Of a stretch of 64,000 bases of DNA, positions 46,092-46,157 are shown in pieces. Below the pieces are notes generated by a model. The model did not search any database, was not told where the DNA came from, and saw nothing but the letters and a program-made list of their open reading frames with translations. A program made the position numbers and the translations under genes. Origin of the DNA: a virus; the UHGV virus genome UHGV-0142425. The stretch is one strand, 5' to 3'. Each line of letters opens with the position of its first letter. Positions within the stretch are counted from its first letter, which is position 1.

Positions 46092-46108
46092 ATTGCTCTA
46101 ATAAAAAA
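46092..46108. promoter_or_regulatory. C1 operator (ATTGCTCTAATAAAAAA)
   Basis: 11-bp core exact; overlaps the A-run of the adjacent terminator hairpin. Confidence 0.6.
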
Positions 46109-46130
46109 CGTGATGAGTGTACATCACGTT
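46107..46130. terminator. rho-independent terminator hairpin AACGTGATG-AGTGTA-CATCACGTT flanked by A/T runs
   Basis: Perfect 9-bp stem; T-run on the minus strand after the hairpin. Confidence 0.7.
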
Positions 46131-46140
46131 TTAAAAATAT

Positions 46141-46157
46141 GGAATTATTAGAGCAAT
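46141..46157. promoter_or_regulatory. C1 operator-like site, inverted relative to 46092
   Basis: Core ATTAGAGCAAT at 46147-46157. Confidence 0.55.

Follow-up and report, generated by a model that had tools for sequence, protein, structure and literature searches.

The DNA analysed here, a stretch of 64 kb referred to below as the window, encodes a C1 repressor (27315-28166, plus strand; 99.6% identity over 284 aa to P1 C1.100 by tblastn) together with Coi and Lpa, and this gene content marks the window as a P1-like phage-plasmid with its own immunity system. Over 2.5 kb at the pmgQ/pmgR region it shares 98.6% identity with P1 and 98.4% with P7; phage phi456 reaches 99.0% there, and an Escherichia albertii plasmid matches a 601-bp piece of the region at 100%. 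All genes in the neighbourhood, pmgP, ppp, pmgQ, pmgR and pmgS, are carried by the minus strand. According to the list of open reading frames and the P1/P7 annotation, pmgQ (hdmD in P7; 46159-46860, stop codon TAA at 46161-46159) is the final gene of the upstream block pmgN-pmgO-pmgP-ppp-pmgQ, while pmgR (shtA in P7; 45859-46077, 72 aa) is the first and pmgS (shtB in P7; 44595-45857, 420 aa) the second gene of a C1-controlled unit. Pfam searches of PmgQ and PmgR gave no match. The gap between pmgQ and pmgR is 81 bp long and houses a pair of C1 operators, Op86a and Op86b. Read on the gene strand, the order is the TAA of pmgQ, one base, Op86a, ATATTTTT, a stem-loop, UUAUUAGAGCAAU (Op86b backwards), 14 nt including the Shine-Dalgarno sequence AAGGTG (46087-46082), and the ATG of pmgR at 46077. 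An operator thus lies just upstream of the next leftward operon, as the preliminary description of this DNA had it, with pmgR and pmgS both running leftward.

The operators share an exact 11-nt core, found as ATTGCTCTAAT at 46092-46102 on the plus strand and as its reverse complement ATTAGAGCAAT at 46147-46157. Op86a (46141-46157, minus strand, ATTGCTCTAATAATTCC), which starts 1 nt past the pmgQ stop codon, and Op86b (46092-46108, plus strand, ATTGCTCTAATAAAAAA), which is in inverted orientation, are 49 bp apart from centre to centre and 32 bp from edge to edge. With up to one mismatch, the 11-mer occurs 15 times in the 64-kb window, as against 1.5 expected copies, an enrichment of about 10-fold over shuffled sequences, and since none of 100 shuffles reached 15, the operator motif is far beyond chance. 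The pair had previously been described as bracketing a perfect 9-bp hairpin at 46107-46130, and both the coordinates and the arrangement could be confirmed. The identification of the sites as C1 operators is likewise borne out by the annotation of P1 and P7 and by the cognate c1 gene in the window. In the P1 record (AF234172) both sites are annotated at homologous positions as protein_bind features, 'phage repressor C1', with OpmgRb given as a monovalent C1-controlled operator, the former Op86b, and OpmgRa, the former Op86a, given as controlling the expression of pmgR and pmgS. The P7 record (AF503408) contains both under the same label as Op(sht[b]) and Op(sht[a]). Judged by these matches, the operator pair is an already known, named and database-annotated feature, which the P1 and P7 records have carried for about twenty years, and its presentation as a discovery does not hold. 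The name 'Op86' did not occur in the literature searched, which lay outside the original P1 genome and operator papers. P1 and P7 also agree with the window in the homologous position, the orientation and the flanking genes of the pair, and P1 in addition has a predicted promoter, PpmgR, at this place; the operators themselves show no difference from those of P1, whereas the 14-nt interval from Op86b to the start of pmgR does.

Both Op86a and Op86b match the 17-bp, asymmetric consensus of P1-type C1 operators, ATTGCTCTAATAAATTT, but the 3' part of Op86b departs from it by having AAA instead of TTT at positions 15-17. An A at position 15 is found in Op86b alone; of the 15 operator-like sites in the window, 13 carry a T at this position. 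Positions 12-17 of Op86b (46103-46108), which form an A-run on the plus strand, are on the gene strand the T6 run that follows the hairpin, in agreement with the earlier remark that the first operator overlaps an A-run. An unbroken T-run requires precisely this deviating AAA, which suggests that the bases are constrained twice, as operator and as T-run. Part of the T-run is imposed by the operator in any case, the consensus having AAA at positions 12-14. Two more inverted pairs of TTGCTCTAAT...ATTAGAGCAA were seen in IMG/VR contigs (L043, 1457-1506; L118, 1878-1926), with spans of 49-50 bp and unrelated inner sequence; they might represent operator pairs from elsewhere, either at other loci or in different P1-like immunity types.

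Between the operators lies a hairpin that, on the plus strand, consists of AACGTGATG (46107-46115), AGTGTA (46116-46121) and CATCACGTT (46122-46130), with a perfect 9-bp stem that grows to 11 bp (46105-46132) by two more A-T pairs. In minus-strand RNA it is AAAACGUGAUG/UACACU/CAUCACGUUUU, an 11-bp stem with a 6-nt loop followed by UUAUU, and the stem begins 27 nt past the pmgQ stop codon on the same strand. The predicted free energy is -13.0 kcal/mol, of which the 8-bp core with 4 G-C pairs accounts for -10.2. The T6 run (46103-46108, minus strand), common to the hairpin and Op86b, directly adjoins the stem, and four of its bases can pair in the maximal stem. Folding of the 81-nt stretch gives -26.9 kcal/mol for the minus strand (z = -8.7) and -27.0 kcal/mol for the plus strand (z = -6.1), with none of 200 shuffles as good in either case. 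A stable stem-loop followed by a U-rich tract, a location at the 3' end of a transcription unit and a structure conserved in relatives are all features of intrinsic terminators, and the hairpin reads as a predicted intrinsic terminator on the minus (gene) strand, where transcripts would be expected to end in vivo. It is only moderately strong, with a moderately G+C-rich core.

A promoter/terminator consensus scan listed no promoter in the gap and also passed over the hairpin, probably because its maximal stem takes up four of the T's; a scan with a fixed T-tail does find it, among about 14 terminator-like sites in the 64-kb window. A search of Rfam returned no family at the element. The hairpin is no feature in the P1 or P7 GenBank records, but the P1 record shows no terminator features at all in the approximately 35 kb read, so that the missing annotation says nothing about its function. 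A literature search for transcript mapping in the pmgQ/pmgR gap found none. Published RNA-seq papers on P1vir give gene-level values only, and a later P1vir transcriptome paper states that Rho-independent terminators and dual C1 sites are marked on the map in one of its figures.

Relatives were gathered by a pattern scan of IMG/VR, by BLAST against phages and plasmids and from protein-anchored loci, giving more than 100 loci, most of them P1-type with single-base variants. The 66-bp element is identical in the P1 locus, and its inner 64 bp are identical in 91 of the 123 matched loci; the 14 nt that follow Op86b up to the start of pmgR read CCATAAGG in the window and CTACAAGG in the commonest variant. 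Two lineages are distant, with flanking genes of about 70% identity, namely Cronobacter phage JK004 and a group of Salmonella enterica plasmids (L073, L059 and L328), and both retain the two operators, the 64-bp span, the T-run and TTTTTTATTAGAGCAA. Their stems differ: P1 has ACGUGAUG/CAUCACGU, the Salmonella group ACAUGGUG/CACCAUGU and JK004 GCAUGGUG/CGCCAUGU. In an alignment of 20 distinct variants (220 cells in the pair count), 97.3% of the cells are paired, with 6 of 220 breaking the pair, and sliding the 3' partner by 1 to 3 columns lowers the paired fraction to 38-72%. Two pairs changed on both sides in a compensatory manner, one from G-C to A-U and one from A-U to G-C. The covariation score, which rests on essentially two or three independent lineages, was reached by none of 500 shuffles; at the level of pairs, the number with a change on both sides was reached by 152 of 500 shuffles and is not significant.

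The strand on which the stem is maintained could be read from its transitions. Eleven of the 14 stem transitions yield G-U or U-G pairs that are valid only in minus-strand RNA and the other 3 break the pair, a bias with p = 0.03, or p = 0.05 when two linked rows are counted as one event; in DNA or in plus-strand RNA the same 11 transitions would be A-C mismatches. This wobble bias indicates, on comparative grounds, that the hairpin is conserved as an RNA structure read in the gene direction, as a terminator predicts. The T6 run (columns 50-55) is invariant across the 20 distinct variants and the first 15 positions of Op86a are invariant in all relatives; the loop varies freely, as does the spacer that separates Op86a from the stem. 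On a small scale, the locus cleanly illustrates how an RNA stem can covary between protein-binding sites that do not change. The terminator-like nature of the hairpin, proposed in the preliminary description, is thus upheld by its stem, the T6 run, its distance from the pmgQ stop codon and the compensatory and wobble-only changes in relatives, and it is these predicted terminator features and their conservation that the present analysis adds to the known operators.

Further searches for more divergent relatives brought little. A search of genome contigs with a PmgS alignment gave 2 near-identical loci and no divergent relatives, and the same search of viral contigs gave 80 loci, all at 99-100% identity. 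A pattern that excluded the P1-type stem returned from viral contigs just the known Salmonella-type loci and one known P1-type variant; a single metagenome scan with DNTTTTTTATTAGAGCAA gave 120 chance matches, none with an upstream operator; and a plasmid search with JK004 DNA for near relatives found nothing. In phage D6, whose PmgS is about 20% identical, pmgR and pmgS are located in a different block, without the operator pair. Among the sequences covered, only P1/P7-like elements and their relatives at about 70% identity show this architecture. The D6 homologue of PmgS (MF356679, 9085-10308; L331) is annotated as a putative prohead scaffolding protein, and the labels given to PmgS disagree, being 'PmgS-like head morphogenesis' in RefSeq P1, 'sheath contraction' for P7 shtB and scaffolding in D6.

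A promoter between the operators, predicted to overlap the hairpin, was missed by the earlier reading. Transferred from AF234172, the predicted sigma-70 promoter PpmgR (46128-46156, minus strand) has its -35 hexamer TTGCTC (46156-46151) within Op86a, a 17-nt spacer and the -10 hexamer TAAAAC (46133-46128), which overlaps the 5' arm of the hairpin and implies a start at about 46121, in the loop. This -10 is without the conserved final T, and the JK004 version degrades to TGAAGC. Hexamer counts and the geometry of another P1 promoter, Plpa at Op94, suggest an alternative register (46116-46143, minus strand) with the -35 hexamer TCCATA (46143-46138, from operator position 15), a 16-nt spacer and the -10 hexamer TACACT (46121-46116), which is the hairpin loop itself and would place the start at about 46109, where the 3' arm ends, one base short of the T-run. 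In JK004 the -35 of this loop register is TTTACT, and in the distant relatives (the L003, L059 and L073 columns) the loop -10 is TATCAT; TACACT and TATCAT both keep T1, A2 and T6 of the -10 hexamer. The two registers match the hexamers equally well in the window (7/12 each), and by this simple count over four lineages the loop register outscores the annotated PpmgR in the relatives, with 8/12 against 7/12 in L073, 8/12 against 7/12 in L059 and 9/12 against 5/12 in JK004. The position of the promoter is thus a prediction with two candidate registers. Because the start would fall inside the hairpin in both of them, pmgR transcripts should lack the 5' arm and would escape the terminator; an RNA starting inside the hairpin showed no comparable structure on folding. 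A mirror promoter on the plus strand, with TTGCTC of Op86b as the -35, was rejected, since its -10 would be AGTGTA with 1/6 matches.

Promoters of comparable geometry are known from P1. At Oban (Op72a/b), P1ban has its -35 TTGCTC inside the operator and a 17-nt spacer, the geometry of the annotated PpmgR, and there, as with Op86a/b, two inverted C1 sites control one promoter. However, Op72a and Op72b overlap to form one bivalent 28-bp operator, whereas Op86a and Op86b are separate monovalent sites with the hairpin in the 32 bp between them, and P1ban is listed as a 'sigma 70 promoter' without the word 'predicted', which PpmgR carries. At Olpa (Op94), Plpa has its -35 starting from operator position 15 and a 16-nt spacer, as in the loop register; Op94 is a single operator without a hairpin, and Plpa, unlike the putative loop register here, is again listed without 'predicted'. 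Some genetic background exists as well. By deletion analysis pmgR is listed as essential, and plaques still formed when dCas12a CRISPRi roadblocks were placed in pmgO, pmgP, ppp and pmgQ, none of which proved lethal (PMC10695390). These non-lethal upstream roadblocks fit an independent pmgR promoter, but weakly so, since knocking down pmgR itself had no lethal effect either (PMC10695390).

At its other end, the pmgR-pmgS unit is followed by a second terminator-like hairpin (44546-44575, minus strand), found by the fixed T-tail scan, with AATGCTGGTGG...CCACCAGCATT forming an 11-bp stem (dG -18.1) before TTTTTCGT. It lies 20 nt past the pmgS stop codon and before pap, is stronger than the pmgQ/pmgR hairpin and is no feature in the parts of the P1 and P7 records read. 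This hairpin is likely the 3' end of the pmgR-pmgS unit, and with a terminator-like hairpin on each side pmgR-pmgS looks like a two-gene unit. Another hairpin was seen on the plus strand at 43944-43966, G+C-rich with a 10-bp stem (ACATGCCGCG-CCT-TGCGGCATGT, dG -15.3) and a T-run on that strand; it is located about 35 nt downstream of OpmgT/Op88 (44015-43999, minus strand), in the pmgT leader, and could be a plus-strand terminator or a 5'-UTR structure of pmgT.

Given these features, the gap, which corresponds to the Op86 region of P1, is quite probably a compact boundary between two early operons, in which a hairpin terminator carries a nested C1-controlled promoter. The hairpin and T6 run would stop transcripts arriving from the upstream pmgN-to-pmgQ block, and a sigma-70 promoter between the operators, overlapping the hairpin, would have its -35 in or at the end of Op86a and its -10 in the 5' arm or the loop, so that its own transcripts would start within the hairpin and not be stopped there. 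In a lysogen, the promoter would be silenced by two C1 monomers, one bound to Op86a over the -35 and the other to Op86b, which covers roughly +1 to +30; the monomer on Op86b could also act as a roadblock to RNA polymerase reading through from upstream. Once C1 is inactivated, the upstream operon would end at the hairpin and pmgR-pmgS would be transcribed alone, up to the terminator after pmgS. The preliminary description had proposed that termination of one operon is coupled here with repressor control of the next and that C1 might govern read-through; the coupling fits the anatomy of the gap, and the control of read-through is conjecture.

Other roles for the hairpin have to be weighed against this boundary. 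The whole 66-bp element is a near-perfect inverted repeat and its 64-bp span is constant in the relatives, and it might be supposed that the hairpin is a DNA-level palindrome that helps two C1 monomers to bind together by short-range looping, bending or cruciform formation, with no terminator involved; looping by C1 has been reported at another P1 locus, the Op99 region. The 11 wobble transitions, which pair only in minus-strand RNA, speak against this, and the constant spacing is equally explained by the joint demands of promoter spacing, hairpin and T-run. Whether measured between centres or edges, the operators are very close together for looping by a protein, and C1 binds its asymmetric sites as a monomer. 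A DNA-level role is therefore highly improbable in our view, and the looping suggested in the preliminary description finds no support in the spacing of the sites. Somewhat different in kind is the possibility that the hairpin acts after transcription, as a 3' stabiliser or processing signal of the pmgQ mRNA or, together with an outer helix formed by the two operators in read-through RNA, as a target of RNase III, with much read-through into pmgR-pmgS and no separate promoter. In read-through RNA a 24-bp helix with interruptions (about -27 kcal/mol) would indeed arise, the two candidate promoters, at 7/12, are weak, and the modest G+C content of the hairpin core would suit such a role. Two C1 operators, however, make little sense without a promoter to control, and operators of the same geometry sit on P1ban and Plpa, whose listing lacks the word 'predicted'. 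The T6 run directly 3' of the stem is invariant and, as a weak point, roadblocks placed upstream of pmgR had no polar effect on plaque formation. We consider a mainly post-transcriptional function unlikely.

The exact overlap of operator and T-run also allows a conditional device, in which C1 on Op86b, over the DNA of the U-tract, would pause or block RNA polymerase at the hairpin, so that read-through from the upstream operon into pmgR-pmgS would be prevented only while the repressor is present. Whichever start is used, Op86b lies downstream of it and faces against the direction of transcription, and Oppp/Op83 is placed likewise relative to the predicted PpmgN. Yet the upstream block has its own C1 operator in Oppp/Op83, and if it is repressed in the lysogen there would be little to block; moreover, the placement is what one would expect of an ordinary second operator at +1 to +30, with no extra role needed. 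A terminator or roadblock that depends on C1 is very unlikely. The boundary reading may also be taken further, to the proposal that one DNA stretch serves as the U-tract of the upstream terminator, as a C1 operator and as the initially transcribed region of the next unit, that the hairpin carries the -10, and that repressor bound at Op86b enforces termination or forms a roadblock. We regard this fuller version as doubtful. If it were true, a promoter inside a terminator would insulate pmgR-pmgS, whose dosage would be set independently of the upstream operon, and the locus would represent a terminator module coupled to a repressor, of a kind that has not been described for P1.

In bacteria, Rho-independent terminators are found that overlap the promoter of the following operon, with the same stem-loop and U-tract after a stop codon and with the downstream unit's own transcripts lacking the 5' arm. 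The locus described here differs from these in that the DNA of the U-tract doubles as a repressor operator, and we know of no named family for this arrangement. The operators being already known, the discovery value is small. For engineers of P1 phagemids and annotators of P1-like phage-plasmids the practical use is modest: the pmgQ/pmgR gap holds a conserved, predicted terminator whose T-run is common to Op86b, and the pmgR promoter probably starts inside the hairpin, so that edits in the 81-bp gap can hit operator, terminator and promoter at once.

Several observations concern the window at large. The DNA of the immunity region (26597-32804, with c1, coi, the Op99 cluster, lpa and pac) is only 93.3% identical to P1, as against 97-98% elsewhere, despite the C1, Coi and Lpa proteins being 99-100% identical to those of P1. 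Four tRNA genes are present at 57300-59060 on the minus strand, Arg(tct), Tyr(gta), Thr(tgt) and a tRNA with a CAT anticodon that ARAGORN calls Met, and this cassette differs from that of P1, which has Asn, Thr and Ile2(CAT) at the matching place. A block of about 6.3 kb (approximately 37021-43388), located between the aligned pmgT and pmgU-pmgV segments, has no counterpart in the compared stretch of P1; its minus-strand open reading frames include a DUF551 domain and two Ead/Ea22-like domains, a content that resembles the variable regions of lambdoid and P1-like elements.
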